A stretch of 46,772 bases of DNA from Gemmatimonadota bacterium (GCA_039589115.1 JBDHHZ010000017.1:1-46772), one strand, 5' to 3'. Positions 2,057 through 45,172 are shown, numbered from the stretch's first letter. Translations and numbers: made by a program. The notes: generated by a model not told the origin, from the sequence alone.

Positions 2057-2074
2057 ATATCTCCGGCCGGCAAG

Positions 2075-3427
2075 CTACGCGCTCTCCGGCAAGTACTCAG
2101 CCACCCGGTCGGCGACCTCCCGCACAGAGTGTTCTCGTCCTTCCTTTATCTCCCAGATCGAAACAATCGGGATGAACTTGGTGGCGAGCATGTACAGCAA
2201 GATGAAGCCCGAGAACGTAGCTGCCATGATCGACAGCTCGACCCATGAGGGTAGGTATTGACCGATCGACTCGATTTCCCAGCGCGGATTCACCGACGTC
2301 GGAACCACTATGTTGAACCGCTCGAGCCACATGCCAATCATCACCGCGATTCCGGCGATAAGTGTGCCCCGAGGCGTCCTCATCGAGCGCCGCGACATGA
2401 GGGAGAGCGGTATGACGAAGCAGCCCAGAACCATGGCCCAGAAGGGGATGGCGAACGGTCCCGCCAGCTTCGCCCAAAAGGCGCGCATCTCTCCGGGCTC
2501 CCCACCGTAGAACGCGGTCAGGTACTCTGCGAATGTGAAGTAGAACCACAGCAAGCTGAACAAGAGGAGCAGGCGGCCCAGGTAATCGAAGTGAATGTCC
2601 TTGAAGTACTGTTGTAGGCCGAAAGCTCGCCGCAGCACGACCATGGCGACAAGGATGGCAGCGATACCGGAGTAGATCGCGCCCATGACGAAGTAGGGCC
2701 CAAAGATGGTGCTGTGCCACATGGGTCGGAGCGTCATTGCGAAAATCCACCCGATCACGGTGTGGACGGAAACCGCTATGGGTATCACGATGATCGAGAG
2801 AACTCCGATAACCCGCTCGAGACGCGCACGCTGCGCCGGCGTGTCGAGGTAGCCGGCAGCAAGGAACCGGTAGAAGCGGGGCGCCTTGATACCCGAGTCG
2901 CGGATGATTGCCAGGTCGGGCAGCAGGGGGACGTAGAGGTAGAGCGTGCACGAGATGAAATAGAGGCCGATGCTCGCGACATCCCAGAGCAACGGCGAGC
3001 TCAGTTGCGCGTGTAGCATGACGTTCAGCACTCGGTCGGGGCGGCCCAGGTCGGTGATCGGTTGGATCGCGCCGAAGCCGATGACAAGAACCGTGATCAA
3101 TTCCGCAGAGCGAGTGATAGAACGCCGCCACTCCGCCTTGCTCACCCGAAGGATGGCGGAGATCAATGTGCCGGCATGGCTGATCCCGATAAAGAAGACG
3201 AAGCAGATGATGTAGATGCCCCAGTAGCTGGGACGATTCAGTCCGGTACGACCGAGGCCGAAACTGACTTGCAGGTAGTACGCAAACATCCCCCAAAGCG
3301 TGATAGCCGCGAGCGAGGCCGCGACGACGTAGAAGCTGCGCGAGGTCTCGACCAACGGCCGCAGAAGGACCTGTTCGTCGGTCGACATGCGGGCCAGCTT
3401 CTCTCTCACGGCTTGTCGCATTCTCAT
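2075..3427 (-). CDS. NrfD/PsrC-family quinone-interacting membrane subunit (QrcD/ActC-like)
   Basis: WGIYIICFVFFIGISHAGTLISA, DLGRPDR, SSPLLWD and WLERF motifs, about 10 TM segments. Start moved to ATG 3427, which overlaps the upstream stop (ATGA). Confidence 0.92.
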   Translation of the reverse strand: MRMRQAVREKLARMSTDEQVLLRPLVETSRSFYVVAASLAAITLWGMFAYYLQVSFGLGRTGLNRPSYWGIYIICFVFFIGISHAGTLISAILRVSKAEWRRSITRSAELITVLVIGFGAIQPITDLGRPDRVLNVMLHAQLSSPLLWDVASIGLYFISCTLYLYVPLLPDLAIIRDSGIKAPRFYRFLAAGYLDTPAQRARLERVIGVLSIIVIPIAVSVHTVIGWIFAMTLRPMWHSTIFGPYFVMGAIYSGIAAILVAMVVLRRAFGLQQYFKDIHFDYLGRLLLLFSLLWFYFTFAEYLTAFYGGEPGEMRAFWAKLAGPFAIPFWAMVLGCFVIPLSLMSRRSMRTPRGTLIAGIAVMIGMWLERFNIVVPTSVNPRWEIESIGQYLPSWVELSIMAATFSGFILLYMLATKFIPIVSIWEIKEGREHSVREVADRVAEYLPESA

Positions 3428-4122
3428 TCTCTCGGCCGCAGATAATAGACCTTCGGTTGGGTTCCCAAGTCCTCCATCAGACGCATTACCCGAGGATCCT
3501 CTTTCAGGCTGGACACCCTGTGACTCGGGTTGTCCAGGTCGCCGAAGACGATGGCGCCGGTGGGACAGATGTCGGCACAAGCCGGCTGATAGTCCTCCTC
3601 ACGCAGTTCGCGTCCCTCGGCGCGCGCATCTTCCCGAGCCTTCTGCAGGCGGTGGTGACAGAACGTGCACTTCTCGATGACACCGTTTGGCCGAACTGAC
3701 ACGTCTGGATTAAGGTGCTGGCGCTCGGACTCGGACCACTCCGGTCCGTACCAGTTGAAGTACTTCACCATGTATGGACAGGCGTTGGCACAGTAGCGGC
3801 AGCCGATGCAGCGCGCGTAGATCTGGCCGACGATACCTTCGTCATCGATATAGGTCGCCTCTACAGGACAGACCCTTATGCACGGTGGATTGTCGCAGTG
3901 CATGCAAGGGCGAGGGTAGAAGTGCATCTTCGTATCTGGAAACTCCCCTTCCACATGCGCCATGACCCTCAGCCAACTGGTGGCGCGCCCCATATCCGCT
4001 TGGTCGGCAGAGACTGCAGCTATGTTGTTCTCGCTCTTACACGCCACCTCACATGCCGCACAGCCCGTGCAGCGGTCCAAGTCGATCACCATTCCCCAGC
4101 GTGTCATATTCTGATCCGTCAC
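3424..4122 (-). CDS. 4Fe-4S polyferredoxin subunit (NrfC/PsrB/QrcC-like)
   Basis: WGMVIDLDRCTGCAACEVAC, CMHCDNPPCIRVCP, CIGCRYCANACP, KCTFCHHR...ACADICP and GTQPKVYY; 16 cluster-type Cys. Confidence 0.95.
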   Translation of the reverse strand: MTDQNMTRWGMVIDLDRCTGCAACEVACKSENNIAAVSADQADMGRATSWLRVMAHVEGEFPDTKMHFYPRPCMHCDNPPCIRVCPVEATYIDDEGIVGQIYARCIGCRYCANACPYMVKYFNWYGPEWSESERQHLNPDVSVRPNGVIEKCTFCHHRLQKAREDARAEGRELREEDYQPACADICPTGAIVFGDLDNPSHRVSSLKEDPRVMRLMEDLGTQPKVYYLRPRE

Positions 4123-31690: not shown

Positions 31691-34084
31691 ATGGATAGGA
31701 TCTGGCAAGATGTGAAGTACGGCCTTCGTGCGCTCCGTAGAGGCAAAGGCCTCATAGCGATTGCCGTGCTCTCTCTGGGCATCGGCATCGGCGCCAACGT
31801 CAGCATCTTCAGTGCCGTGGACGTGTTCATGCTCCGTCCTTTGCCCTATCCCGATTCCGACGACCTCTACGCGGCGTACACGACCAATCTCGAGAGAGGT
31901 TGGAACCGGGTCTCCTACTCGGTACCCGACTTCCTCGACTTGCGCGAGCGCAGCCAAACCATCGGTGTCGCCGCACTCAACGGGGCGAGCTTCAACCTTT
32001 CGGGTGGCGACCGGCCCGAGCGGCTGCGAGGTCAGGTGGTCAGCGCGGACTTCTTCCAGGTTCTCGGAGTGGGTCCGGCGATGGGCCGCGGCTTCACGCC
32101 GGAGGAAGAGCGCGAGGGCCTGAACCATGTAGCGATCATCAGCGACGGGCTCTGGCAACGGCGGTTCGGAGCCGATCCGAACGTGCTGGGTAGCACAGTG
32201 CTCCTGGACGGTGAAGTCCACACGATCATCGGCGTGATGCCGCCGAAGTTCTGGTTCGGCTGGCCGGGCAACGAGATCTGGGCTCCAATCGGCATCACCG
32301 GCGAGGAAGCGCGCAACAGTCATTATCTGGACGTCCTGGTGCGAGTGGGCGGCGGCACGTCGAAGGATCTAGCTCAGCAGGAGGTCCAGCGTATCGCGGA
32401 GCAGCTGGCCGTCGAGTTCCCCGAGTCCAACAGAAACAACGGCGGGACCTTGATCACGTTGCATGAGCGTGTCTTTGGTGAGGGATTCAAGATGGGCACG
32501 CTGATCTCGACTGTAGCCGTTCTGTTCCTGCTCCTCATCGCCTGTGCCAACGTCGCGAACTTGCTGCTCACACATGCCGCGGGTCGCGATCGCGAAGTTG
32601 CCGTGCGCAACGCGCTCGGCGCGGACCGTACCCGCATCGTCCGTCAGTTCCTCACCGAAGCGGCGATCATATCCGTGATGGGTGGGCTGCTTGGACTCGC
32701 CCTCTCCGTCATCGGCATCCGCGCGCTCGTTTCGGTCATGCCCGGGTGGTTTCCCCGCGTCGACGAGATCGGCTTGGACGGGCGCGTCCTGCTCTACGCC
32801 GCCGGGGTCTCGCTGCTGACCAGCATACTGGTCGGCCTGGCGCCGGCTCTTCAGAGCTCCAAGCCGAACACGACGGAGACCCTCAAAGAAGGCGGAAGGG
32901 GAGGCACGGCCGGCAAGAGCATGCGCCTCAGAAAGGCGCTGGTCGTGGGTGAGGTGTCGCTGACTCTGGTCCTGCTCGTCTCATCGGCTCTTCTGGTGCA
33001 AGCGTTCGTGCGCGTTCGCCTGGCCGATCTCGGGTTCGACCAGTCGGACGTTCTCACTCTGCGAGTCGCGCTTCCAGAAAACGACTACCCTGACACCGTT
33101 GCCGTAGGGGCCTTCCACGAGCGGCTCGCGTCGCGCATCGCGTCCATCCCAGGCGTCGAGGCCGTGGGCGCGACCTCGATCTTTCCCCTCCAAGGGAACA
33201 GCGCGACGTATTACTGGCTTCCCGGTGAAGTGATCGAGGACGACTCGCAGCGGAAGATAGCCAACTACCGGTACGTACTGCCCGGGTACTTCGCCGCTAT
33301 GGATGTCCCCGTGGTCCGCGGTCGCGGTCTCGAGGAAGGTGACCGGGCGGGCATGCGCCTCGTCACCGTGATCGACGAGACGATGGCCGAGAAGCACTGG
33401 CCCGAGAGCGACCCTATCGGGCAGCAGATCGAGTTGTACTCGGGGCCCCGCGAGATCGTTGGGGTGGTGGCCGACACCAGGCTCAACGGAGCCGGCAGCA
33501 CCATGCGGCCCATGGTCTACTTGGCCGCCATGCAGACGACTTCGCGCAGCCTCGGCTGGGTGATCGAGACCCGGGTGCCGCCGCAGAGCATCGTCGAGGC
33601 CGTACGGGCCGAGGTCCGCTCCATCGATCCCAACATTCCCGCTTACAGCGTCCGATCGATGCGAGCGATGATCGATGAGACCCTGGGTGGCGACACGATC
33701 ATGGCGAAGATCATGGGGGTGGTGGCGGTGATCGCTCTCGTCCTATCGCTGGCCGGCGTGTACGGCGTGATGGCCTACACCGTCTCGCAGCGAACTCAGG
33801 AGCTCGGCATCCGCATCGCGCTGGGAGCACAGACCGGTGATGTCCTGTCCATGGTCGTGCGGCAGGGCGCGCTGCTCGCCTTCATCGGCGTGGTCGTGGG
33901 CATCGGCGTGGCCCTCGGCGTCACCCGCGGCCTCTCGTTCTTCTTGTTCGATGTCAGCCCCTTCGACCCGTTGACCTTCGGAGCGGTGGCGATAGCGTTG
34001 CTCGTTGCCGGACTGGTCGCGACGTACTTCCCGGCACGCCGCGCGACGAGGGTGGATCCGATAGTGGCCTTGCGGGCGGAATAA
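31691..34084 (+). CDS. ADOP/MacB-type permease
   Basis: QDVKYGLRAL, LIACANVANLLL, ELGIRIALGA and PARRATRVDP. Confidence 0.95.
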   Translation: MDRIWQDVKYGLRALRRGKGLIAIAVLSLGIGIGANVSIFSAVDVFMLRPLPYPDSDDLYAAYTTNLERGWNRVSYSVPDFLDLRERSQTIGVAALNGASFNLSGGDRPERLRGQVVSADFFQVLGVGPAMGRGFTPEEEREGLNHVAIISDGLWQRRFGADPNVLGSTVLLDGEVHTIIGVMPPKFWFGWPGNEIWAPIGITGEEARNSHYLDVLVRVGGGTSKDLAQQEVQRIAEQLAVEFPESNRNNGGTLITLHERVFGEGFKMGTLISTVAVLFLLLIACANVANLLLTHAAGRDREVAVRNALGADRTRIVRQFLTEAAIISVMGGLLGLALSVIGIRALVSVMPGWFPRVDEIGLDGRVLLYAAGVSLLTSILVGLAPALQSSKPNTTETLKEGGRGGTAGKSMRLRKALVVGEVSLTLVLLVSSALLVQAFVRVRLADLGFDQSDVLTLRVALPENDYPDTVAVGAFHERLASRIASIPGVEAVGATSIFPLQGNSATYYWLPGEVIEDDSQRKIANYRYVLPGYFAAMDVPVVRGRGLEEGDRAGMRLVTVIDETMAEKHWPESDPIGQQIELYSGPREIVGVVADTRLNGAGSTMRPMVYLAAMQTTSRSLGWVIETRVPPQSIVEAVRAEVRSIDPNIPAYSVRSMRAMIDETLGGDTIMAKIMGVVAVIALVLSLAGVYGVMAYTVSQRTQELGIRIALGAQTGDVLSMVVRQGALLAFIGVVVGIGVALGVTRGLSFFLFDVSPFDPLTFGAVAIALLVAGLVATYFPARRATRVDPIVALRAE

Positions 34085-34089
34085 CTACT

Positions 34090-34249
34090 CGACAGCCGAC
34101 AGCCGTTAGCCGACAATCGACATTCGAGTACTTCCCGACGATCGAGTCCCGACGGCCGGCGTCCAATGCTCGGCGTACATCGAACGTAGGACGTGGAACG
34201 TCGAAAACCGAGTTGTACTCGGCTGTCGTATGTCGGCTGTCGGATGTTG
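34090..34249. repeat. Heptamer-array palindromic element, copy 1
   Basis: (CGACANN)n-CGAGTAC(34125)...GTACTCG(34215)-(NNTGTCG)n between convergent genes. Confidence 0.88.
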
Positions 34250-34259
34250 TGAAGTAACC

Positions 34260-36686
34260 CTACTCCGCCGTCAGCGCCGACACCGGATCGACCTGTGTCA
34301 CGCGGCGCGCCGGAACGAAGCTCGCCGCCAGGCCGGTCAGGGCCATGGCCAGCGTTACGGTTAGGAACACGCTGAGATCCCTCGTATTCACATCGTAAAG
34401 GATGAACTGAAGTGGGCCGGCGACCAGGGCGGCCAGTCCGATGCCGATCGCCAGGCCGATGCCTAGCTGGATGACTCCCCGTCTCATGACCAGCCTGACG
34501 AGGCTCGGGCCGTCGGCGCCGAGCGCCATCCGGATCCCCATCTCCTGCCTACGTCGGCTGACGGCGAACGACATGACGCCGTAGAGGCCGACGACGGCGA
34601 GGAAAAGGGCCACGAAGCCGAAGACCACGAACACGGAGCCGAACAGCCAGTAGATCCAGGTCTCCCTGGCGATCACCTCCTTCATCGACAGGACTTCGTA
34701 GATTGGGAGGTTAGTGTCGAGCGACTGGACAGCAGCGCGGATGTCCGGTGTTATCGACATCGGCGCGCCGCGGGTTCGTACGGCGATGCTGACCAGCGTG
34801 CCCACCGGGCTCTGTGAGATGGGCATGTAGTAGCCGGCCGGGCTGGCGTTCTGGTTCTCCATGCCCTCCATCTTCATGTCCGGCACCACGCCGACCACCG
34901 TCATCCATGCCAACGCTGTGTCACCGGTGATGATCCGCATGCGCCGGCCGAGGGCATCGCCCTCGCTGAAGAAGGTGCGGACGAAAGTCTCGTTGACGAT
35001 TGCCACCGGAGGGCTCGCGCCGTGGTCCGTCGCGGTGAAGGCCCGACCCTCCAGTACGGGCGCCTGGAAGGTCTCGAAGTAGCCTGGGGTTACTATGCCT
35101 TCCCGGGCGAACGGCAGATCGTCCTCGGAGGCGTACGACTCGCCATCGATCTCGAAGACCCGCGTCCCGTTTCCGGCGGCCGGTAGCCCATCGGAAAGGG
35201 TCACCGCCTCGACGCTGGGGATGGCCCGTAGCCTCGGCAGCAGGTCCTCGTAGAACTGGATTCGGCGGTCGGGATTGGGATACTCCTCAGCCGGCAGGCG
35301 GAGCCGCGCCGTGAATACGCTCTCGGTGGCGAACGGAAGGTCCTCCGTTATCAGCCGGGTGACGCTTTTGGTCATCAGGCCCGCCAGGACGAGCAAGCCG
35401 CACGACAGTGCGATCTCGGTGACGACGAGAGCGGCGCTGAACCTGCTCATGCGGAAGCTCGCTGATCCCCGGCCCTCATCTTTGAGCGCTTCGCTGACGT
35501 GCACGCCTGTGGCGCGGAGCGCCGGGATCAGCCCCGAGACGAGGCAGGAGAGCATAACCATCGAGGCTACGAAGAGCACGACCCGGTAGTCTGGGTCGAA
35601 CGTGATCCAGAACGGTGGCGGATCGAGGATCGCCATCCTGTCGATCCATACGACCCCGGCCCGGCCGATGGCGTACCCGAGGACGCCGCCGATGCTCGAG
35701 AGAATCAACAGTTCGGTCATGAACTGTGCGATGATCCGCCCGCGGCCGGCCCCGAGCGCCGTGCGCACCGCCACCTCGCGAGTACGTGTCGTCGCTCTGG
35801 CGAGCAACAGGTTGGCAACGTTGGCACAGGCGATTAGCAGCACGCCGATCACGGCGCCGAGCATCGTGTAGACCATCCCCCCCATCCGGGGGTTTATGAG
35901 ATCGGGGAACGGCAGCAGAGTCGCGCCGATTCCCTCATTCGTCTCCGGATACTCGAGCTCGAGCCGCCGGGCGATGGTCGCAAACTCAGCACGCGCCTCA
36001 TCCAGCGTGACATCATCTCTCAGTCGCGCGACGCCGATGTAGCTTGGGCCCTCTCCCCGCTCATAGGCGCTCGGCTCGAGCACCTCCGGAATCCAGAGCT
36101 GCTCTTGGTCCGGGAACCTGAAACCGTCGGGCGCCACGCCGACGATCGTTCGCGTGGTGCTGTTGGCGCGGACCGTTCTCCCGATCACGTCCGGCGAACC
36201 GCCGTAGCGGTCCTGCCAGACGTCGTAGCCGATGACGATCACCGGCTCGGCACCGGGCCGGTCGTCTCCTTCCAGGAGCAAGCGGCCGAGCTCCGGCTGG
36301 ACACGAAGCAGGTCGAACAGGTTGGCCGTCGTGAACGCTCCCGTGTGTCGTTCCGGGCGCCCCTCGCTGCCAGCCAGGTTCACCGTCCTGATAGCGACCA
36401 CCTCGAACGCCTCGAGCGTCGACTGCTGCTCCCGCCAGTCCACGAAGTCGTGAACGCCGATGTTGCCGAACCGGACGCTGGCGATAAGGTCGGTCGTCCC
36501 GACGGCCACGATTCGGTCGCCCTCCGGGAACGGCAGCCCTTTGTACATCGCGCCGTTCACCCAGCTGAAGACCGTGGTGGTGACGCTGATACCCAGGGCG
36601 AACGTGATGATGATGATTGCTGAGAGTCCCGGACGCTTGAGCAGCATCCGTAGGGCGAAGCCGATATCCCTGCGCAGTTGATCCAT
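34260..36686 (-). CDS. ADOP/MacB-type permease
   Basis: [38 protein letters not shown] and PARRVTQVDP. Confidence 0.95.
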   Translation of the reverse strand: MDQLRRDIGFALRMLLKRPGLSAIIIITFALGISVTTTVFSWVNGAMYKGLPFPEGDRIVAVGTTDLIASVRFGNIGVHDFVDWREQQSTLEAFEVVAIRTVNLAGSEGRPERHTGAFTTANLFDLLRVQPELGRLLLEGDDRPGAEPVIVIGYDVWQDRYGGSPDVIGRTVRANSTTRTIVGVAPDGFRFPDQEQLWIPEVLEPSAYERGEGPSYIGVARLRDDVTLDEARAEFATIARRLELEYPETNEGIGATLLPFPDLINPRMGGMVYTMLGAVIGVLLIACANVANLLLARATTRTREVAVRTALGAGRGRIIAQFMTELLILSSIGGVLGYAIGRAGVVWIDRMAILDPPPFWITFDPDYRVVLFVASMVMLSCLVSGLIPALRATGVHVSEALKDEGRGSASFRMSRFSAALVVTEIALSCGLLVLAGLMTKSVTRLITEDLPFATESVFTARLRLPAEEYPNPDRRIQFYEDLLPRLRAIPSVEAVTLSDGLPAAGNGTRVFEIDGESYASEDDLPFAREGIVTPGYFETFQAPVLEGRAFTATDHGASPPVAIVNETFVRTFFSEGDALGRRMRIITGDTALAWMTVVGVVPDMKMEGMENQNASPAGYYMPISQSPVGTLVSIAVRTRGAPMSITPDIRAAVQSLDTNLPIYEVLSMKEVIARETWIYWLFGSVFVVFGFVALFLAVVGLYGVMSFAVSRRRQEMGIRMALGADGPSLVRLVMRRGVIQLGIGLAIGIGLAALVAGPLQFILYDVNTRDLSVFLTVTLAMALTGLAASFVPARRVTQVDPVSALTAE

Positions 36687-36867
36687 GTCATGCCGCTGGC
36701 TGAGTGAAGCTGAGGCTCGCGCTTCTGGCTAGCACTACGAACGAGTGGCCTGGCGGGTTTCCTGTTGCCGGCCGATTGGCCGGGCGTCTCGATAATGCCT
36801 AGTTTGGGAGAACACGGTCGGTTATGACTGATCAACCGAACTCGCTCGCTTGGGGGAACCAAGTGCC

Positions 36868-37629
36868 ATGACTCTGGAGATCGTGAAGAAGACATACGAA
36901 AAGCTGGGTCGAGAGGATCCCCTATATGCCGTGCTGTCCGACGACAAGCTCCGGCACAACAAGTGGGATCCGGCCGAGTTCTTCCAGACTGGAGTGCGAG
37001 AGATTCGGGAAGTGCTCGAGTACGTCGACCGTCTCGCCCTTCCGCTCGAGCGGCAGCGAGTGCTCGACTTCGGTTGCGGGGTGGGGCGCCTGAGCCAGGC
37101 GCTTGCCGAACACTTCGAGCAGGTCGTGGGTGTGGATATCGCGGAATCCATGGTCCAAGAAGCCCGCAAGTTCAACAGGCATGGCGACCGCGTCGAATAT
37201 CGGGCCAACAGCACCGATAACCTGGAGATCCTCGACAGCAACTCTTTCGACTTCGTGTACACGTACATAACCCTGCAGCACATACCTCCGGAACCAGCAG
37301 AGAACTATATCCGCGAGTTCTTCCGCGTGCTCCGACCGGGCGGGATCGCGATCTTTCACGTCCACACCGGTAAGCTATACGAAGCCGGTTCACTGCGTGC
37401 CTGGCTGTACAACCTTCGGCGTCGGCGCTTGCGTAGAATCTGGAAGATCGTTCGCGGTCGGCCGCCAGTCGAGATGCACTACATCGCGCGTGAGCGAGTC
37501 GAGCGTATTGTCGAAGAGAGCGGTGGCCGAATGGCCGACGTTGTGGATGCGGGGGAGGGACGAAGACGCGGGAGGAGCTTTCGATACTACGCCGTGAAAT
37601 CGAGGTCCTCGAAGGAAGAACCAGTCTGA
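36868..37629 (+). CDS. Class I SAM-dependent methyltransferase
   Basis: VLDFGCGVGRL, VGVDIA, SFDFV and RVLRPGG; ATG 36868 preferred as start. Confidence 0.92.
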   Translation: MTLEIVKKTYEKLGREDPLYAVLSDDKLRHNKWDPAEFFQTGVREIREVLEYVDRLALPLERQRVLDFGCGVGRLSQALAEHFEQVVGVDIAESMVQEARKFNRHGDRVEYRANSTDNLEILDSNSFDFVYTYITLQHIPPEPAENYIREFFRVLRPGGIAIFHVHTGKLYEAGSLRAWLYNLRRRRLRRIWKIVRGRPPVEMHYIARERVERIVEESGGRMADVVDAGEGRRRGRSFRYYAVKSRSSKEEPV

Positions 37630-37638
37630 GGAAAAGCT

Positions 37639-37812
37639 CGACATTCGACAACCGACATTCGACAGCCGACACTCGACGCTCGAGTACTGCCCGATGATCG
37701 AGTCTCAACGCTCCACTTCCGACGCTCGGCGGACGTCGAAAGTAGGACGTCGAAGGTCGAGAGTCGAGTAGTACTCGGATGTCGATTGTCGAATGTCGGC
37801 TGTCGGCTGTCC
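37639..37812. repeat. Heptamer-array palindromic element, copy 2
   Basis: CGAGTAC at 37681 and GTACTCG at 37771, flanked by CGACANN and NNTGTCG arrays; between convergent genes. Confidence 0.88.
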
Positions 37813-37821
37813 TCCGGCCTC

Positions 37822-40095
37822 TTACCAAGCAAAGGTATAGGTGTATTTCAGCAGTATCGTCCGGTTATCGGTGAGCGGCAGGGCCGGCTCGCTGCGGTCC
37901 CGGTCGAGGTTGTACCCCTCGTTGTAGACCAACCACAGGTCGTTGCCCTCGCGGAAGTTGTAACGCAGCCGGACGTTGGCCGCGCCGAAATCGCTGATGT
38001 TGCTGTACTGCAAGAAGGCGTTCACCGAGAATTTCGTGTCGAGCGCCGTCCCGATCCTCAGTCGCCCGATGTGCGCGTCGAAGCCCTGGTCGCGGTCCGG
38101 GAACCGCACGATGTCGATCTCATACTGGAAGGTGAACTCGAGGTGGCGCGAGACGTTCCAGCGTGGGACCAGCCAGATGTTCGTTCGCCAACCATCGTAG
38201 AAAGCCTGCGCACCTCCACCGACGAAGAAGCGGAACGGCGTGCCCGGTGGCATGCTGAAGTCGAACTCGAAGCGCGGGAACGTATAGCTGCCCGGCGGGA
38301 CGTAGGTCCCGAGCGGGAAGTCCAGTGTCTCGCGCACGTCCTCATAGTAGAGCTCCAGATCGAGCCCCAGCCATGCCCCGGATCGCCAACCGAAATCGAC
38401 GTCGTGCTCGACGAATGCCGACTCGACGCTGCCGTCCGGATTGCGCAATGCGACCGACCCGAACAGTTGGAACGGATCGATCCTGCGAAACGGCCCAGCC
38501 TCGGGGTAGTGGAAGTAGGCGACCGAGTAGTAGAAGTCGCTGAAGTTGCGGCGCGTCACGAAGCCCATCTCGGGGTTGTAGTCCGCGCCGAACCGGCGAG
38601 CGCTGAAGAAATACGAGAACCCGCGCTCCCGTGCTCGGTCGAGGTAAAGGCGTACCGCGCTGGCCTCGGCGAACCGGAACCCGCGATCGGCGATGATCTG
38701 GTCGTCGACGCTCTGGGCCAGGCGGATACCCAGGTAGTCGTCGCCGGTGTAGCGGAACGTGCCGTCGAGGCCATACGCGATGTTGTAGGAGCCGTCGTCT
38801 CCCAGCCTCGTCGTGAGCATCGCCCCGGCGTTCGAGTACTGGTTGAAGACGCGGCGGCGTGCCCGGGCGACCCCGAAGTTCTCGGACGGCAGATGGGTGC
38901 TCCGCTTCGTCTGCATGTCGAGGACGCCGACATCCCAATCGCCGACCCGGCCCACCAACCTCGCACCGCCGATGATCGGGATCGCCTCACCTTCGTAAAG
39001 CCCGATGTGTCGGCTGTAGAATAGCCGCGTCGCACCGCCGGTGAAGAAGTCGAATACGCCGGATCTCTCCTGGAAGAACTGGCGCTTCTCGGGGAAGAAC
39101 AGCGAGAAGCGCGTCAGGTTGACCTGCCAGTCGTCCGCCTCGACCTGCGCGAAGTCGGTGTTGACGGTGAGGTCGGCCGTCAGGTTGCTCGTCACGTTGT
39201 ACTTGAGATCGCCTCCAACCTGGCCCTCTACTTCGCTGTCCAGTTGGTAGCGATCTCCAACGCTGGTCAGCACCGCGTCTTGTCCCACACCGCTCAGCAC
39301 GTAAGGTGTGAGGTACACCGGCCTGTGCGTGCTCACGCCCTCCAGAATCGCGTCCTGCGCCAGCGACGGCCTCAGGTAGTCGAACTCGGGCGGGATCTCC
39401 GGGAACACCTGCCGCTCGTTCTTCCGCGGGATGTAGCGGTAGGCGGAGATGCCCATCTCCACCCGCTGATCGACGGCCTGAAATCCCAGGCTCGAGAACG
39501 GGATCCGCAGCTCGGCGAACCAGCCCTCCTCCGTCTCCACCGCCGCCACGTCCCAGTAGGTGTTCCAGCTGCCGTTCCAGCTGCCCGCGCCGTCCCCGGC
39601 GATCGATACGTCCCCGCGCAGGCCCGCCGGTGTCGTGAAGAACCAGAGACCGATGTCGTTGTCGTTGAATGGATCGACCACCATGCCGAAGCAGTCGTCG
39701 CCGCTCAAACGGTCCCGGTACATCGAGTTCACCTGAATCCCCGACGGATCGGAGTCGTAGAAACGCCCTGCCACATAGAGGAACTCATCATCATAGCCGA
39801 TGCGGATCTCCGTCCGCTCCGTCAGCTCACCCCGGAACGATGGCGTGTACATCGTCATCGGAAGCGGCTCGATACCGCGCCAGGCGGCCTCGTCGCTCGG
39901 GCCATCCAGCTCCACCGGCCCGTCCAGCCGCGACAGTACGATGAGCGTGTCCGGTGCCCTCCAGCTCGGGTCCGCGCCTTCCTGCGCCGCCAGCTCGGAA
40001 GCCCCTGGCGGAAAGGCTGCGGCCAGCGCCACGACCGACCCGAGGATCAGGCGAGCTGCGGGCTTATCTGTAAAGATTTTTTCATATATGCGCAT
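37822..40095 (-). CDS. Outer-membrane protein: CBM9/DOMON-like domain and DUF5916-like beta-barrel
   Basis: Signal peptide; LDGPSDEAAW, GWFAELRIPFSSL and NTDFAQVEAD...NLTRFSLFFPEKRQFFQE; aromatic C-terminus YTYTFAW; start ATG 40095. Confidence 0.85.
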   Translation of the reverse strand: MRIYEKIFTDKPAARLILGSVVALAAAFPPGASELAAQEGADPSWRAPDTLIVLSRLDGPVELDGPSDEAAWRGIEPLPMTMYTPSFRGELTERTEIRIGYDDEFLYVAGRFYDSDPSGIQVNSMYRDRLSGDDCFGMVVDPFNDNDIGLWFFTTPAGLRGDVSIAGDGAGSWNGSWNTYWDVAAVETEEGWFAELRIPFSSLGFQAVDQRVEMGISAYRYIPRKNERQVFPEIPPEFDYLRPSLAQDAILEGVSTHRPVYLTPYVLSGVGQDAVLTSVGDRYQLDSEVEGQVGGDLKYNVTSNLTADLTVNTDFAQVEADDWQVNLTRFSLFFPEKRQFFQERSGVFDFFTGGATRLFYSRHIGLYEGEAIPIIGGARLVGRVGDWDVGVLDMQTKRSTHLPSENFGVARARRRVFNQYSNAGAMLTTRLGDDGSYNIAYGLDGTFRYTGDDYLGIRLAQSVDDQIIADRGFRFAEASAVRLYLDRARERGFSYFFSARRFGADYNPEMGFVTRRNFSDFYYSVAYFHYPEAGPFRRIDPFQLFGSVALRNPDGSVESAFVEHDVDFGWRSGAWLGLDLELYYEDVRETLDFPLGTYVPPGSYTFPRFEFDFSMPPGTPFRFFVGGGAQAFYDGWRTNIWLVPRWNVSRHLEFTFQYEIDIVRFPDRDQGFDAHIGRLRIGTALDTKFSVNAFLQYSNISDFGAANVRLRYNFREGNDLWLVYNEGYNLDRDRSEPALPLTDNRTILLKYTYTFAW
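40067..40086 (-). promoter_or_regulatory. Putative BlaI operator inside the 5' coding region of the barrel gene
   Basis: TATGAAAAAATCTTTACAGA, 18/20 identical to the site at 43329-43348. Confidence 0.7.
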
Positions 40096-40169
40096 GGGAA
40101 AACCCTCATGGTCCGGGGGAGCCGCAGGGGCCGGAGCCCCTGCGGCCCTTCCGGTAGACGGCACCCGGG

Positions 40170-41072
40170 CTACGCGGAGGCGCGGCCCCGGTCCCGGCCC
40201 GCATTGTCACGCTCGGAGCGCTTGTGCTCGTTGTAACGCGACGGGTTGGTTTCGTCGAGCGACCAGACTGCCATGGCGCGGACGGCTGGATCGCGATCGC
40301 GGAGCGCGTCGAGGAGCGGATCCACGGCGCGCTCGTCGCCCAGTCTGCCGAGCCGTTCGGCCGCCGATAGCCGAGTCTGTGGGTCGTCGTCGCTCAGAGC
40401 GGTGATCAAGCTGGAGGCGTCATCCGCCATCGGCCGGGCCCTGAAGCTTCCCAAGTGGCCGGTCCAGACCTCGTCGTTCTCGTAGGGGTAGCGTCCCGCT
40501 TCGCTGAAGATGGCGTCGCGCGCTCTCGGGGCTTCGCCCTCTCCGATCTCGCCGAGCGCCCAGATGACCGGTTCGCGGAGCTCGCTGTGCCGGTCGAGCG
40601 CTTCGGTCAGCGCGGAGACCGCCGAGGGATGTTCGATCTCTCCCAACGACAGCACGGCCATCTCGCGCACCAGCGGGTCGTCGTCTCCCAGCAGCTCGAT
40701 CAGCGGTTGGATGGCCATGTAGTCCTTGATCTCGCCAAGAGCCCAGGCGGCGACGAGGCGTACGTCTGCATCGCGATCTTCCAGACGCTCGATCAGCGGC
40801 CTTACACCTTCGGTGCTCTCGAGCTCGCCGAGCGCCCAGGCCGCATAACGTCTGACGAGTGGATCGCTGTCTTCCAGCTCGCGGATGCGCTGGATCGCGG
40901 CGTCGCTGCTCTGAGTTGCTCCCAGCAGTTCGACGGCCGGTGCGATCTGCGCGAGGGCGATCCTGAACAGGCGCGTTGCGTGGAGTTCCGAGCCCAAGCC
41001 GATGACCGCCGCGACTACGAGAGCGATGAAGGCGAGTCGTCTAAATGTAAATGTTTTTTCATATGTGGACAT
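40170..41072 (-). CDS. Exported HEAT/PBS-lyase repeat protein; paralog of the sensor's C-terminal domain
   Basis: GGAGGT RBS; signal or TM segment; repeated D.D..VR..AAWALGE units. Confidence 0.9.
   Translation of the reverse strand: MSTYEKTFTFRRLAFIALVVAAVIGLGSELHATRLFRIALAQIAPAVELLGATQSSDAAIQRIRELEDSDPLVRRYAAWALGELESTEGVRPLIERLEDRDADVRLVAAWALGEIKDYMAIQPLIELLGDDDPLVREMAVLSLGEIEHPSAVSALTEALDRHSELREPVIWALGEIGEGEAPRARDAIFSEAGRYPYENDEVWTGHLGSFRARPMADDASSLITALSDDDPQTRLSAAERLGRLGDERAVDPLLDALRDRDPAVRAMAVWSLDETNPSRYNEHKRSERDNAGRDRGRASA
41044..41063 (-). promoter_or_regulatory. Putative BlaI operator inside the 5' coding region of the HEAT gene
   Basis: TATGAAAAAACATTTACATT, 16/20 identical to the site at 43329-43348. 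Confidence 0.65.
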
Positions 41073-41109
41073 GATCTACCTCCGTTCCATCGTCAGGGTT
41101 GGCTAGCTC

Positions 41110-42921
41110 TTACTCGGTGTTCTGATGACGCGACGGGTTAATCTCGTCGAGCGCCCAGATCGCCATGGCGCGCACCGAGGGCTCCGGATCGCGTAGCGCA
41201 TCGAGGAGCGGGTCGACGGCGCTTTGCTCGCCGCGCAGCCCGAGCCACTCGGCAGCGGAGCGCCGCATCTTGGGATCGTCGTCGTCGAGAGCGTCGATCA
41301 GGGCGGACAGGTCTCCGGCGAAGCGGCGAGCGGCGTCGCTGCCCAGGTAACCGCTCCAGACGTCCTGGTTGTCCCAGCCGCGTCGTCCGATCTGAGCGAA
41401 GACGGCGCTTCTGGCTCTCTCGGCCTCGTGGTTGCCGATCTCGCCGAGCGCCCAGATTGCCGGTTCTCTGAGCTCGGGATGGCGGTCGAGCGACTCAATC
41501 AGCGGGTCGATCGCCGAGGGGTTCTCTATCTCCCCCAGCGCGAGGACTGCCATCTCGCGGACGAACGGATCGTCGTCGTCTAGGCGCTCGACCAGCGGGT
41601 AGATGGCTATGTCGTCCTTTATCTCGCCGAGCGCCCAGGCGGCGACCAGGCGGACGTCGGCATTCTCGTCAGTCAAACCTTCGATCAGTGGTCTCACGCC
41701 GCGCGAGCTCTCGAGCTCACCCAACGCCCAAGCCGCATGCCGTCTAACGAGGGGATCGTCGTCCTGCAGCTGGCGGACGCGCTGCTCCACCGAGTCGCCC
41801 ACCTGGACCGTGCCCCAGATGTCGACGCTCGCCAGCGGCAGAGCGAACAGCAGTGCGGCGACGGCGGTGGAGAACAACCGGCCCTGAGACATGGGCGCTC
41901 GATCCAGTTCTCTGGCGAGAATGCTGCGGAAGCGCGTCGCCAAGCTGGACGGCTGCGCCATGGCGAACGCTGCGCGTGGTGCGTCATCGGAGACCTGCGC
42001 GCGGGCGATCTCGAACAGATGCGAAGCGTACACATCGGAGCGGACGCCGGCGTACAGCGCTTGGTCGTCGCAGGCTCGCTCGCGTTCCATGGCGCCTTGC
42101 TTTGCGGCGATCCAGACGAGCGGGTTAAACCAATAGATCGCGCACACGACCTCGACCATGAGCAAAACGGCCCAATCCCACCGTCTGATGTGAGCTAGCT
42201 CATGCAGTAGCACGATGTGGGTTCGCTGCGTCGACCATGTGGCCATAGCTTCCGGCAGGATCACTGCGGGAGTCCAGGCGCCCCACGTGAGCGGCACCTT
42301 CACTTCGTCGCTCACGAGGATGCGGATCCGACGTCGAATTCCCAAGCTCACCGCCAGTCGGCGTGCGAGATCGTGAACCGCCGCGGAACTGCAGTTCGAA
42401 GCCCGCCGCGTGATACACCGAATCCGCAGCGTGTCGACGCCCAGGCGGCCAAGCAGAGCTAGCACACCCAGCAACCAGATCACCAGAGCGATAGCCACAG
42501 GGGAGGCCCCCGACGCAGCGGATTTCTGCGAGTCCGCTTGCTCGAACGGGACAGTGACCGCAGGCGAAGTCCCTCTCGTTCCCACCGTCCCTCGTGTAGC
42601 AGCAGGTCGCGCGGCGGGCGAGGAGCTCTCGAGGCGCTCAGAACAGCACTGCGTGGCATCGCTCGGCAACACGGTCTCCGTCTCCATCGAGACGTACAGC
42701 CGCCCCAGCTTCCACGCTGGAAGCGCTCCGGAGAGGATCGGCAGAAGGAGCAGACAGCCGAGCGCGACACTCCATACCGCGTGTCGCGTGGCTGCGGAGC
42801 CACACCGCAGATACCAGGCTGCTATTCCGGCGACGGCTAGAACGATCGTCGCCTTCAGCAGGACATCGATCGCAAGGTCGATGGCGAACGCTGTGTATGG
42901 ATTAGTCAGAGCCTCACCCAT
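41110..42921 (-). CDS. BlaR1/MecR1-like M56 metallopeptidase sensor with extracytoplasmic HEAT repeats
   Basis: SAATRHAVW, VPLTWG, LLHELAHIRRWD (HExxH), YWFNPLVW and ERACDD; a TM followed by HEAT repeats; start ATG 42921. Confidence 0.93.
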   Translation of the reverse strand: MGEALTNPYTAFAIDLAIDVLLKATIVLAVAGIAAWYLRCGSAATRHAVWSVALGCLLLLPILSGALPAWKLGRLYVSMETETVLPSDATQCCSERLESSSPAARPAATRGTVGTRGTSPAVTVPFEQADSQKSAASGASPVAIALVIWLLGVLALLGRLGVDTLRIRCITRRASNCSSAAVHDLARRLAVSLGIRRRIRILVSDEVKVPLTWGAWTPAVILPEAMATWSTQRTHIVLLHELAHIRRWDWAVLLMVEVVCAIYWFNPLVWIAAKQGAMERERACDDQALYAGVRSDVYASHLFEIARAQVSDDAPRAAFAMAQPSSLATRFRSILARELDRAPMSQGRLFSTAVAALLFALPLASVDIWGTVQVGDSVEQRVRQLQDDDPLVRRHAAWALGELESSRGVRPLIEGLTDENADVRLVAAWALGEIKDDIAIYPLVERLDDDDPFVREMAVLALGEIENPSAIDPLIESLDRHPELREPAIWALGEIGNHEAERARSAVFAQIGRRGWDNQDVWSGYLGSDAARRFAGDLSALIDALDDDDPKMRRSAAEWLGLRGEQSAVDPLLDALRDPEPSVRAMAIWALDEINPSRHQNTE

Positions 42922-43297
42922 GGGACTTCCTCTCTTCTTCGATCCACTCGGCGATCTCGTCCAGCTCGTCACGCGACAGCTTCGACATACCGAGAAGCGT
43001 CAGCATCGCCCGGGATGGTGACCCGCGGAAGAACGTGTGCAGGAGATTGCGTACCGCGGATCGGGAGGCCGCCTCGTGAGGGACCGTCGGGCTGTAGACG
43101 TAGCGGCGGCCTTCCTGCCGGTGCTTCACGTGGCCCTTCTTCTCCAAGATGCCCAGCGTCACCCGCACAGAGTCGTATCCCGCATCCTCATCCATGCGGC
43201 CGAAAACGTCCGCCACGCTCGCCTCGCCCAGGCGATAAACGACGTTCATGATCTCTCGCTCGCGGCGGCTCAGCTGGTTCTGCGGGGTCTTCTTCAC
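42914..43297 (-). CDS. BlaI/MecI/CopY-family repressor
   Basis: LSRREREIMNVVY...VRVTLGILEKKGHV....GRRYVY...TFFRGS; overlaps the M56 start. Confidence 0.94.
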   Translation of the reverse strand: MKKTPQNQLSRREREIMNVVYRLGEASVADVFGRMDEDAGYDSVRVTLGILEKKGHVKHRQEGRRYVYSPTVPHEAASRSAVRNLLHTFFRGSPSRAMLTLLGMSKLSRDELDEIAEWIEEERKSHG

Positions 43298-43328
43298 AGG
43301 GCACTCTCCGGGGAGGAGGCCAGCAGCT

Positions 43329-43383
43329 TATGAAAAAATCTTTTCATATGGCCCAAAGTAGTACCCCCTCACCAGGGTGTCAA
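43329..43383 (-). promoter_or_regulatory. Sigma70 promoter and palindromic operator of the blaI operon
   Basis: Minus strand TTGACA(43383-43378)-N17-TACTTT(43360-43355); TATGAAAA-AATC-TTTTCATA palindrome at 43329-43348, at the predicted +1. Confidence 0.82.
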
Positions 43384-43446
43384 GTTTATTGTGGGGCCTA
43401 TCCACCCTACGGTTCGGTGGTCGCTGCGGTTTCTGAGAAAGAGGAT

Positions 43447-43599
43447 CGACATTGGACAGCCGACAGCCGACATTCGAGTACAACTCGACTACCGACGTCC
43501 GACTCCCAACGTTCGACGTCCGTGGAAGATCGAGCGTAGAACGTTGACCGTCGAGTAGTACTCGGGGGTCGAATGTCGATTGTGGGCTGTCGAATGTCG
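43447..43599. repeat. Heptamer-array palindromic element, copy 3
   Basis: CGAGTAC at 43475 and GTACTCG at 43558, with the same flanking arrays. Confidence 0.88.
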
Positions 43600-43610
43600 A
43601 GTAGTTACGC

Positions 43611-43646
43611 AAAAAAAATTGCCGGGACACCTATCGGTGCCCCGGC
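43611..43646 (-). terminator. Rho-independent terminator
   Basis: Minus strand GCCGGGGCACC-GATA-GGTGTCCCGGC-AATTTTTTTT. Confidence 0.8.
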
Positions 43647-43689
43647 GCAGATTCCTGTTCAAGGTGCGCGAATTAGCGCTCGTTAGGCT

Positions 43690-43773
43690 CTATTCCTGCT
43701 CCTCGTAGGAACGCCACACCAGCACCACCGGGGGCACTAGGATGACGCTTGCAATCAAAATCGCGGTCAACAT
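43690..43773 (-). CDS. Putative 27-aa single-TM small protein
   Basis: MLTAILIASVILVPPVVLVWRSYEEQE*; GGAAGGA upstream; followed by its own terminator; below the ORF-track size cut-off. Confidence 0.5.
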   Translation of the reverse strand: MLTAILIASVILVPPVVLVWRSYEEQE

Positions 43774-44082
43774 CTGTCTGTCCTTCCGTCGGTTCTTCAC
43801 CGTGCACTCTCAAGGCTACGGTACATCGTCATTGACCTTGCTCGTGGCGTGCGGGAGCAGCCCGCATCGCACTACTTTGTAGGGCAAACAACATGCCACT
43901 GTGCCGGCGCCGGAAGGCTAGCGGTGGTGCGGTTTTCTGGCAGGCTGGGGCGGGCTTCGCCCGGTCGGGGCCTCATTTCGAGCCGGACAGGGGACAAACT
44001 GACCTGCCGGCGAGCGCCTGCCCGTCGCGCGGGCTCGAGGAGCTGTTTGCTGGGTTACAATAGACCAGCTAGAGTTATTGCT

Positions 44083-44505
44083 ATGGAGCCAGCCAACGGC
44101 GCATACGAAGTGCCCGAGCATGAGATCTACTTCCAGGCGACGCGGTCCAGCGGTCCTGGCGGCCAGCACGTCAATCGCCGGGCCACTCGCGTCGAGGCGT
44201 GTTGGAACGTCCGGGAGAGTCCCAGCCTGACGGACGAGGAGCGGGCGAGGATCCTGGAGAAGCTGGCGGCTCGGATCGGCAAGGACGGCGTTCTGCGTGT
44301 CGTCGCGGAGGACGAGCGAAGCCAGCATCGCAACAAGGAGCTGGCGAAGCAGCGGCTGCGGGAGCTGGTCGCGGAAGCGCTCCGTGTACCGAAGCGCCGG
44401 GTGAAGACGCGACCGCCCAAGTCGGCGGCGGAGAAGCGGCTGGATGAGAAGAGCCGCCGCAAGCGGGTTAAGAAGTTGAGGAAACCTCCCGACCCGGAAG
44501 AGTGA
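44083..44505 (+). CDS. arfB: Alternative ribosome-rescue peptidyl-tRNA hydrolase ArfB (YaeJ)
   Basis: RSSGPGGQHVN (GGQ), RSQHRNKELA and basic tail RVKTRPPKSAAEKRLDEKSRRKRVKKLR; ATG 44083. Confidence 0.95.
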   Translation: MEPANGAYEVPEHEIYFQATRSSGPGGQHVNRRATRVEACWNVRESPSLTDEERARILEKLAARIGKDGVLRVVAEDERSQHRNKELAKQRLRELVAEALRVPKRRVKTRPPKSAAEKRLDEKSRRKRVKKLRKPPDPEE

Positions 44506-44512
44506 GGTGGAT

Positions 44513-45172
44513 CTAGCGGCGCGCGACGAGCATCCACTGCCCGTCGCTGTGGCCGCTATCAGCGAACTGCTCGTCGCGGTCGAGCACCTCGAAGCCCGCC
44601 TCCCGAACCTCCTGTTCGACTAGATCGATGCTCAGCTCGTGGCTCCTCATTTGTTGATCGCGCGACTGGGAAGGGTTGGACGCGACCAGGTCCAGGATCA
44701 CGAGACGCCCGCCGGGTTTCAGCGCCCTGTACATCGCTGAGAGCATCGCCTCGTACTCGGTCATCTCGTGGTAGGCGTCCACCGTCAGCACCGCATCCAG
44801 CGATTCATCCTGGAGCTTGGGATCATCGATTTCGCCGCGAACGACCTCCACGTTGTCGAGACCCTCGTCCTCAACAAGCTGCCTCAGCTGCGTTAGAGCC
44901 CGCTCGCTGATGTCGACGGCGAACACGCGTCCGCTGGCGCCGACCTCTCTGGCGAGGTGCCCCGTGAAGTAGCCGCTACCGGCGCCCACATCCGCCACGC
45001 GACTCCCCTCGCCGATCGCCAGCGCAGTCATGACATCCGGCACCCGCTGCCAGTCGTCGCGATTGCGTCGCTGGGCCTGGACCTCGGTCGGTTGGAAGCC
45101 CACGGCCAGCAGGGCACAGAGTAAGAGCCAGGACGACTGGCGCGGCACAGACACGCGGTATGCCTTTCTCAT
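44513..45172 (-). CDS. Class I SAM methyltransferase with an N-terminal signal-like sequence
   Basis: VADVGAGSGYFT, VFAVDI, DAYHE and ALKPGGRL; hydrophobic leader ending VQA-Q. Confidence 0.9.
   Translation of the reverse strand: MRKAYRVSVPRQSSWLLLCALLAVGFQPTEVQAQRRNRDDWQRVPDVMTALAIGEGSRVADVGAGSGYFTGHLAREVGASGRVFAVDISERALTQLRQLVEDEGLDNVEVVRGEIDDPKLQDESLDAVLTVDAYHEMTEYEAMLSAMYRALKPGGRLVILDLVASNPSQSRDQQMRSHELSIDLVEQEVREAGFEVLDRDEQFADSGHSDGQWMLVARR

Follow-up and report, generated by a model that had tools for sequence, protein, structure and literature searches.

Analysis of the 46,772-nt stretch JBDHHZ010000017.1 (hereafter the window), part of the 3.71-Mb, 503-contig Gemmatimonadota assembly GCA_039589115.1, revealed a four-gene unit on the minus strand, which encodes, in order, a BlaI-family repressor, an M56 protease fused to a HEAT-repeat domain (M56-HEAT, the sensor), a free exported HEAT protein and a DUF5916 protein predicted to form an outer-membrane barrel (Table 1). 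This order, proposed by an earlier reading of the window (the sequence-only reading), was borne out by open reading frame (ORF) calling and Pfam; two start codons were revised. For the sensor, ATG 42921 is the most likely start, in place of GTG 42972, giving an 8-nt overlap with the blaI stop (ATGGGTGA), and the DUF5916 protein starts at ATG 40095 and not at GTG 40164. The free HEAT gene follows the sensor gene after 37 nt, and the DUF5916 gene follows after a further gap of 74 nt, which holds a strong GC hairpin. A scan of one genome per GTDB species gave 12 loci, and a synteny search found the arrangement, in the same order and on the same strand, in all five close orthologous loci (L036-L040, from metagenome-assembled genomes of Gemmatimonadota/Gemmatimonadales with sensors 62-67% identical), in agreement with the expectation that it would be conserved. 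A metagenome scan contributed a single further locus, L069, which repeats L038 in nearly all tblastn figures and was not counted as independent.

Table 1. Features of the four-gene unit and its immediate surroundings, in positions of the window.
Feature	Coordinates	Strand	Description
Terminator-like hairpin	43621..43646	minus	11 pairs, 9 of them GC, then AATTTTTTTT; upstream of the four-gene unit
Dispersed palindromic repeat copy	43447-43601		upstream of the blaI promoter
Promoter before blaI	43355..43383	minus	TTGACA 43383..43378, 17-nt spacer, TACTTT 43360..43355
Putative operator O1	43329..43348		perfect 8+4+8 palindrome TATGAAAAGATTTTTTCATA
blaI	43297..42914	minus	127 aa, GTG start; BlaI/MecI/CopY-family winged-helix repressor
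Sensor protease M56-HEAT	42921..41110	minus	603 aa
Free exported HEAT protein	41072..40170	minus	300 aa; signal peptide and paralogue of the sensor ectodomain
Putative operator O2	41046..41063		TATGAAAAAACATTTACA; codons 4-9 of the free HEAT gene (MSTYEKTFT)
GC-rich hairpin core	40122..40145	minus	CCGCAGGGGC-TCCG-GCCCCTGCGG; between the HEAT stop and the DUF5916 start
DUF5916 protein	40095..37822	minus	757 aa; signal peptide, CBM9/DOMON-like beta-sandwich, large beta-barrel (predicted)
Putative operator O3	40069..40086		TATGAAAAAATCTTTACA; codons 4-9 of the DUF5916 gene (MRIYEKIFT)
Dispersed palindromic repeat copy	37621..37820		directly after the DUF5916 stop

The blaI product matched PF03965 (Penicillinase_R) over the full profile (positions 1-115/115, E 2.2e-25, 89.6 bits versus a cut-off of 22.6), while remaining below the NCBIfam equivalog cut-offs of CopY_TcrY (51.3 versus 121.95 bits), BlaI_of_BCL (33.4 versus 180) and MecI (29 versus 250). 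The sensor matched PF05569 (Peptidase_M56, E 6e-35, 121.3 bits versus a cut-off of 31, profile positions 3-294/296; residues 38-349 as counted on a 620-aa ORF) and, at its C-terminus, HEAT_2 (E 6.5e-42). Its relation to BlaR1 was seen both with a 70-homologue profile, which matched the S. aureus BlaR1 structure 8exs (E 2.4e-12, profile positions 98-353), and with its AlphaFold model (predicted local distance difference test, pLDDT, 84.7), for which Foldseek returned BlaR1 8exp (E 8.6e-4). The HELAH zinc motif lies at residues 240-244, and H240, E241, H244, E279 and E281 are the same in all 70 sequences compared. From the model together with a hydropathy count, transmembrane (TM) helices were placed at residues 8-37, 43-66, 141-173 and 346-365, with a disordered loop at 72-136 and a K/R-rich protease domain at 174-345, followed by an acidic HEAT domain of six alphaRep-type repeats at residues 374-602 (about nt 41113-41817). 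No penicillin-binding domain was detected in the sensor, as the sequence-only reading had stated: NCBIfam blaR1_generic reached 95.6 bits versus a cut-off of 400, over residues 161-307 only. The lack of this defining penicillin-binding sensor rules the protein out as a BlaR1/MecR1 equivalog. Judged by these matches, the repressor and the protease module are nevertheless members of their families.

According to PMC7593790, BlaR1 has a cytosolic protease and carries an extracellular domain beyond its last TM helix. Both HEAT domains are most likely periplasmic and not cytoplasmic, as a role in detecting an envelope ligand would demand; this follows from the homology of the M56 protease to BlaR1, from the position of its HEAT domain beyond the last TM helix and from the signal peptide of the free paralogue, whose N-terminus runs from basic through hydrophobic to small residues (MSTYEKTFTFRRLAFIALVVAAVIGLGSELHA).

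The free protein matched HEAT_2 at E 1.5e-62, and both HEAT proteins comprise six repeats arranged as ~31-residue tandem units. BLASTP aligned the two with 162 of 254 residues identical (64%, E 5e-106), an alignment in which the block of 45/56 identical residues and the shared LDE.NPSR ending pointed out earlier can both be read; at the DNA level, a 300-nt stretch is 75% identical. The HEAT profile matched artificial alphaRep proteins (E 1e-115 to 1e-18) and CpcE (1e-13), and Foldseek gave TM-scores of up to 0.8-0.9 to alphaRep-type targets. Where alphaRep repeats vary in the profile alignment, the residue is the x of AAxALGx. Here, these binder positions read W,W,L,W,E,W and E,E,E,E,x,E, the same in the sensor and free forms of the window and of L037 and L039, and a conserved aromatic insert between repeats 4 and 5, WGRxxWxNDxVWTGxLG, is likewise common to both forms. 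Across six sensor and six free sequences, 107 of 257 columns are invariant and a single column carries a fixed sensor-versus-free difference. The identical binder positions and the lone fixed difference favour a shared ligand or partner for both HEAT domains, and the proposal that the two proteins bind the same ligand gains support from them. Recent gene conversion between the two HEAT segments was considered and not seen: within genomes, third-position identity at identical residues was 0.53-0.64 between the paralogues (0.75-0.89 between close orthologues), and the longest identical run was at most 23 nt. These low identities and short runs indicate that the copies are old and that their likeness has been kept by selection and not by recent conversion.

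A repeat search identified a 28-nt repeat family with three copies and the core TATGAAAA-N4-TTT(T/A)CA. Copy O1 begins 6 nt after the -10 hexamer of the blaI promoter and covers the expected transcription start. A TTGACA-17-TA(C/G)nnT layout precedes blaI in all five orthologous loci; a generic promoter scan did not flag the blaI promoter of the window, the -10 hexamer of which matches at 3/6 positions. The 16-bp pattern occurs at three places in the 3.71-Mb assembly, all of them in this four-gene unit, and when up to two mismatches were allowed only O1, O2 and O3 reached 14/14 in the genome. Across the six loci (~70 kb), matches of at least 12/14 were confined to the region before blaI (6/6), the start of the HEAT gene (6/6) and that of the DUF5916 gene (2/6, the window and L039). 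In the four loci lacking O3, the DUF5916 start abuts the HEAT stop, so that the putative operator marks each unit set apart by a gap. Both half-sites are conserved, in contrast to the central 4 nt and the encoded residue, which vary. The motif forces the codons TAT, GAA, AAA, TTT and ACA, whose use elsewhere in the window's genes is 19, 24, 21, 7 and 8%, and free HEAT proteins in the databases begin with M(S/T)xYE(K/N/R)xF(S/T) or MYE(R/K)xFS, as expected from the motif. Behind the TTGACA of each of the genome's four other BlaI paralogues stands a different repeat or palindrome. The distant loci L053 and L056 carry a TGAAAA-AATA-TTTTCG-like site within the DUF5916 gene, at its 5' end, together with a weaker GGAAAA-N4-ATTACA upstream of blaI; over the distant loci (~393 kb), only two sites reach 11/12. 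Taken as sequence evidence, these patterns make it very probable that the palindrome is the BlaI operator, and O1-O3, as the likely BlaI operator, would define the regulon. One candidate for an additional regulon member, C210:1433-1450 (13/14), was set aside as a probable chance match, having no second half-site symmetry; it falls on an ATG AAA AAG gene start, and by eye this gene is ArsR-like and precedes a heavy-metal ATPase-like ORF.

The product of the last gene matched DUF5916 (PF19313) with 59.7 bits versus a cut-off of 22.6, only profile positions 18-95/572 being aligned. Its AlphaFold2 model, made from a 75-sequence alignment (pLDDT 85.8, predicted template modelling score 0.83), displays a signal helix, a beta-sandwich at residues ~48-252 and a barrel at residues 256-755 with ~24-26 long strands over ~260-753. 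Structural comparison of residues 48-252 gave 4jpq (VIA Z 19.6, root-mean-square deviation, rmsd, 2.9, 194 aligned) and CBM9 1i82 (VIA Z 17.9, rmsd 2.8, 176 aligned), and that of the barrel, residues 256-755, gave MtrB (VIA Z 16.6, rmsd 3.9 over 383 residues). Foldseek matched the model to LptD, OprC and TonB-dependent transporters (E ~1e-7, TM-score 0.2-0.33) and again to CBM9 1i82. The fold is thus nearest to MtrB, TonB-dependent transporters and LptD, with no family-level similarity to them. The protein ends in ...YTFAW, and a C-terminal aromatic residue is the beta-signal rule for outer-membrane barrels. As modelled, the last gene encodes a CBM9-like domain joined to a large outer-membrane beta-barrel. 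The CBM9/DUF5916-like barrel of the sequence-only reading therefore stands as to DUF5916 (by Pfam), the CBM9 fold (by the model) and the outer-membrane barrel, but not as to a CBM9 sequence match, since CBM9_1 (PF06452) was not detected in this protein by Pfam at E<=0.01; many homologues carry PF06452.

The window protein is a clear member of the DUF5916/'carbohydrate binding family 9 domain-containing' proteins, from which it differs by lying under apparent BlaI/M56-HEAT control. Relatives at E<=1e-5 made up 7751 of 8000 scored candidates, with labels from several phyla; all 120 relatives among the matches listed carry PF19313, and the ESM Atlas returned DUF5916 clusters only. The most conserved motif, NTDFAQVEADD.QVNLTRFSLFFPEKRQFF (residues 312-348), contains many residues that are invariant across phyla. 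Within it, residues 316-338 form the only internal stretch with pLDDT below 50, and this stretch may serve as a plug, as an active site or in binding a partner.

M56-HEAT fusions are numerous and annotated in databases; our literature search returned no paper on them, nor any on DUF5916. Relatives of the sensor at E<=1e-5 numbered 1985 of 8000 scored candidates, and all 120 among the matches listed carry PF05569 together with HEAT families. The free HEAT protein was matched by 332 proteins at E<=1e-20. 'Longest contig' lengths of 4806034, 68838 and 63992 recur among the relatives of the sensor, the free HEAT protein and the DUF5916 protein, which suggests, though it is no proof, that the three relatives share contigs. 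In a tally of 201 genomes of the phylum, which takes in two unpublished ones (G182 and G157), 72 matched the sensor at E<=1e-30, mostly by the M56 part only.

In a sample of 11 distant M56-HEAT loci (L041, L044, L048-L056), the genes lying next to the sensor gene or a short way downstream of it were diverse. They encode a free HEAT protein in three loci (L044, L051 and L054), DUF5916 directly in two (L053 and L056), a PF00144 beta-lactamase-family hydrolase in two (L041, 9617-11011; L055, 9293-11029), cytochrome P460 with an MBL-fold protein in two (L048 and L049), an S9 peptidase (prolyl oligopeptidase) in one (L052, 4559-6769) and a protein without a Pfam match in one (L050). The clade of L053 and L056 (G144, G110), whose sensor is ~30% identical to that of the window, has no free HEAT gene between M56-HEAT and DUF5916. 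For L074 and L076, an extra HEAT region was seen by tblastn only. The hydrolase, P460 and S9 neighbours suggest that HEAT-type BlaR sensors control varied periplasmic enzymes, and the hydrolases hint, as a lead only, at cell-wall or antibiotic-damage signals.

The genome under study itself holds a second such system, on the minus strand of contig C184 (L097), with BlaI at 3940-4329, a 788-aa M56-HEAT at 1571-3937 and a 222-aa exported free HEAT protein at 906-1574. Here, the free HEAT start overlaps the sensor stop, and the free protein is only 35% identical to the domain of its own sensor. This second system and the distant loci together make an M56-HEAT sensor with a free exported HEAT protein a recurrent design. 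Free HEAT proteins of other clades are much longer, at 516-532 aa, and share only 47-51% identity with the sensor domain. The claim that the free protein is a close duplicate of the sensor ectodomain consequently holds for the window's clade, to which, on these identities, this relation appears to be special, and does not extend to other M56-HEAT systems. Three more BlaI/M56 pairs lie on contigs C26, C331 and C467 (L098, L099 and L001), each blaI with its own repeat or palindrome after TTGACA. Their M56 proteins carry other C-terminal domains, namely a ~600-aa region with SSDYEL-type repeats, TonB_C and peptidase M23; in this genome, M56 is found fused to HEAT (twice), to TonB_C, to M23 and to a repeat without a Pfam match.

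We favour, with a probability of roughly 0.6, a BlaR1-like proteolytic switch with a HEAT receptor, whose regulon would comprise its own genes, a secreted copy of the receptor domain serving as a buffer or carrier of the same ligand, and an outer-membrane barrel. In the resting state, BlaI dimers would occupy the palindrome at the blaI promoter, over the transcription start. Further BlaI sites, placed in the initial codons of the gene for the free HEAT protein and, in this genome, also of that for DUF5916, would hold the effector genes more tightly shut than the sensor and repressor genes. Upon induction, an extracytoplasmic molecule, most likely an extended peptide, a protein segment or a polymer, would bind the concave, Trp/Glu-lined face of the sensor HEAT domain, whereupon the cytoplasmic M56 zinc protease would be activated and BlaI would be cut. 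The ensuing derepression would yield more sensor, the secreted copy of its binding domain and the CBM9-like, large-barrel outer-membrane protein. With the binding positions of the sensor, the free HEAT protein would bind the same molecule, and would either buffer it, giving negative feedback, or carry it through the periplasm to or from the barrel. We infer that the four genes are co-transcribed and that the free HEAT protein may act as the decoy or chaperone that the sequence-only reading had envisaged.

Several observations weigh against this proposal. The periplasmic placement of the HEAT domains derives from homology and hydropathy only, and HEAT repeats are generic scaffolds, so their conserved face shows constraint and not a ligand. 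The neighbours of M56-HEAT vary between loci (PF00144 hydrolase, P460 with MBL-fold protein, S9 peptidase), and the HEAT sensor is therefore not generally tied to DUF5916 or to a free HEAT copy. BlaI of S. aureus is cleaved at an Asn-Phe motif, which is not evident at the aligned place in this BlaI. BlaI/MecI/CopY boxes follow a TACA/TGTA core rule, and O1 has no clear core of this type. O3 is present in only two of the six close loci, and a primary operator would not usually be expected within coding sequence, where O2 and O3 are found. The search for internal promoters yielded none that convinced: a consensus scan gave 0 promoter-like sites in 37400-43800, and inspection by eye added no convincing internal candidate. 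In some orthologues, -10-like hexamers overlap the HEAT start codon; as internal promoters these were rejected, because transcription would start downstream of the ATG. Located after start codons and with no usable internal promoter in evidence, O2 and O3 are most likely roadblocks or auxiliary operators, for which intragenic operators such as lac O2 and the PurR site in purB are precedents.

Alternatively, the unit may form a trans-envelope relay, in which the HEAT domain docks on the periplasmic part of the DUF5916 barrel and the sensor monitors the barrel's state, much as FecR does that of FecA. The docking site would be the N-terminal CBM9/DOMON-like domain or the conserved loop NTDFAQVEADD..FPEKRQFF, and the free HEAT protein would compete for or extend this contact. 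The direct succession of M56-HEAT and DUF5916 in L053 and L056 suggests such a core sensor-barrel pairing. Moreover, the N-terminal domain precedes the barrel and would face the periplasm, as is usual for the domain before the barrel of an outer-membrane protein, and the low model confidence at residues 316-338 of the most conserved motif is what a partner-dependent segment might show. However, DUF5916 is widespread, with proteins 48-55% identical in lineages labelled Rhodothermales, Salinibacter and Poribacteria, and at least seven DUF5916 loci exist in this genome, with no second M56 or operator match beside any of them, so the family works without a HEAT sensor. By eye, the ORFs neighbouring the other DUF5916 paralogues gave no functional lead, and no family search was made on them. 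Many M56-HEAT systems, conversely, have no DUF5916 neighbour. A complex prediction for DUF5916 (residues 49-757) with the sensor HEAT domain (residues 372-603) returned 'no answer' (score 0.00), which is evidence neither way. On balance, we regard a relay of this kind as unlikely.

A second alternative, which we consider distinctly improbable, is that the free HEAT protein is a co-receptor, forming a hetero-oligomer with the sensor ectodomain that tunes the protease as an inhibitor or activator with no titration of ligand. The two HEAT domains are near-identical on the conserved face, and BlaR1 is a dimer according to the title of PDB 8exp ('with C2 symmetry'). Further evidence came from HEAT-domain trees built on 12, 95 and 57 rows, the 57-row tree having been cleaned of 38 rows (27 near-duplicates, 6 'free' rows that were in fact fragments of sensors and 5 that were ambiguous or on long branches). 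Sensor and free clades are intermingled in the trees according to lineage, and within each lineage the HEAT pair resemble each other as much as or more than they resemble their orthologues. Five label changes are needed in the cleaned tree, at least two of them forced by well-supported branches, and forcing all free forms together costs 35 log-likelihood units (approximately unbiased, AU, test p 0.033). Such within-lineage likeness fits co-evolving partners, but the same pattern is expected if both domains track one evolving third partner or if it stems from old gene conversions, and the longer and more divergent free HEAT proteins of other clades also speak against a co-receptor. The trees offer modest evidence for co-evolution or old conversions; concerted evolution of the paired domains, for which the sequence-only reading had suggested a tree, is weakly indicated by the AU test and finds no echo in recent conversion tracts.

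In a third alternative, the HEAT domain does no sensing: M56 answers general membrane or envelope stress or is constitutive, HEAT is a scaffold or chaperone for export or assembly of the barrel, and the motif is a translation or mRNA element, in line with the help that an AT-rich beginning of the coding region can give to initiation in GC-rich genomes. Gene regulation by sensor-less BlaR homologues, P. aeruginosa PvmSR and mycobacterial BlaR, as described in bioRxiv 10.64898/2026.08.03.742534, also fits this alternative, but we hold it to be very unlikely, since a true palindrome lies at a non-coding site right after the blaI -10 hexamer in 6/6 loci, the half-sites persist while the centre varies, TTTACA variants create mismatches that are not compensated as an RNA stem would need (on which ground an RNA-hairpin reading of the motif was rejected), and the motif stands at no other gene start in the genome at 14/14.

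The proposed BlaR1-like switch with a HEAT receptor can be compared with several known systems. With BlaI/BlaR1 and MecI/MecR1 of Staphylococcus and Bacillus (mechanism as given in PMC7593790), it shares adjacent genes for a repressor and a four-TM M56 zinc protease, HExxH with a downstream Glu, a probably extracytoplasmic C-terminal domain after the last TM helix, a palindromic putative operator at the promoter and an effector related to the sensor domain. Whereas BlaR1/MecR1 sense through a class-D-beta-lactamase-like penicillin-binding domain, the window's protein has a six-repeat HEAT solenoid in this place. In addition, blaI comes first and all genes lie on one strand, the predicted regulon consists of the free HEAT protein and an outer-membrane barrel and not of a beta-lactamase or PBP2a, and the putative operators lie within the first codons of the effector genes. 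The sensor-less BlaI/BlaR pairs of M. tuberculosis (Rv1846c/Rv1845c), M. abscessus and P. aeruginosa (PvmSR), for which bioRxiv 10.64898/2026.08.03.742534 reports no beta-lactam sensing through a penicillin-binding protein domain, likewise join BlaI and M56 in regulating other functions; as described there, they have no ectodomain, whereas the sensor of the window has a large one and a secreted copy of it. Among non-canonical systems that have been studied, PvmSR and mycobacterial BlaR come closest to the window unit. The same 31-residue repeat is found in HEAT proteins of the alphaRep/PBS type (artificial binders, MTH187, CpcE/F, NblB). The repeats of the window differ from these in being probably periplasmic and fused to a membrane protease, in having binder positions fixed as a Trp/Glu ladder and a conserved aromatic insert between repeats 4 and 5, and in lacking a bilin-lyase context. 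FecA-FecR-FecI offers a functional analogy only, in that a barrel in the outer membrane and a periplasmic domain on a signal protein of the inner membrane are combined with regulated proteolysis to release transcription; the window unit has no homology to it, and no TonB box, plug or sigma/anti-sigma pair. Altogether, the four-gene unit looks like an envelope-sensing switch of an uncharacterised kind.

Upstream of the unit, the terminator-like hairpin would shield it from transcription entering from that side. The hairpin between the free HEAT and DUF5916 genes has 13 pairs in the predicted fold and no T-run after it, and the RNA fold of 40175..40060 reaches -55.8 kcal/mol (z -4.05). The repeat copies on either side of the unit belong to a dispersed, intergenic palindromic element of ~170 nt with CGACANN-like heptamers, which matched at ~45 places in the 503-contig assembly, three of them in the window (the third copy at 34089-34247). 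It is a genome-wide element and not specific to the four-gene unit, and the idea that inverted repeats delimit the unit as a mobile cassette was accordingly rejected. Whether the element resembles repetitive extragenic palindromes or miniature inverted-repeat transposable elements (REP/MITE) is raised as a question only. An Rfam scan of 33800-44000 at E<=0.1 gave 0 matches; the repeats and the hairpin correspond to no known RNA family. Around the third copy lie convergent MacB_PCD plus FtsX permease genes of ~800 aa each (31691-34084, plus strand; 34260-36686, minus strand), and ORFs with N-termini similar to theirs by eye also follow the M56-HEAT/PF00144 pair in L041. The genes that flank the unit (43849-44505, plus; 44513-45172, minus; 36850-37629, plus) encode an RF-1-domain (ArfB-like) protein and two S-adenosylmethionine (SAM) methyltransferases, one of which has a signal-like N-terminus; this exported methyltransferase also lies upstream of the unit in L039, and not in L036-L038 or L040.

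To our knowledge, BlaR1-type signalling is understood only for beta-lactam sensing via a penicillin-binding domain, and the unit bears on what M56 proteases with other ectodomains detect. It offers a compact case, in which a putative 20-bp operator occurs three times, the sensor domain also exists as a soluble secreted copy and the predicted, conserved regulon has only two effector genes, and it provides a first regulatory context for DUF5916, a widespread outer-membrane family. Its putative operators in codons 4-9 also illustrate that a DNA site can dictate a protein N-terminus and force rare codons. More tentatively, and as a possibility that we would not call probable, the unit may be an envelope-sensing circuit of a new kind, with a Trp/Glu-ladder HEAT groove through which a BlaR1-type protease recognises an extended cationic peptide, a stretch of protein or an envelope polymer, by analogy with the reading of basic peptides by importin-alpha. 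The circuit would induce a secreted receptor copy as a ligand sink together with a dedicated outer-membrane conduit, and the repressor sites in the first codons would serve as transcriptional roadblocks. If this were true, M56-HEAT sensors would constitute a large unrecognised receptor family of Gemmatimonadota and Acidobacteriota, and those of other loci, where serine and metallo hydrolases would be under their control, may signal damage to the cell wall or by antibiotics with no covalent binding of the drug.

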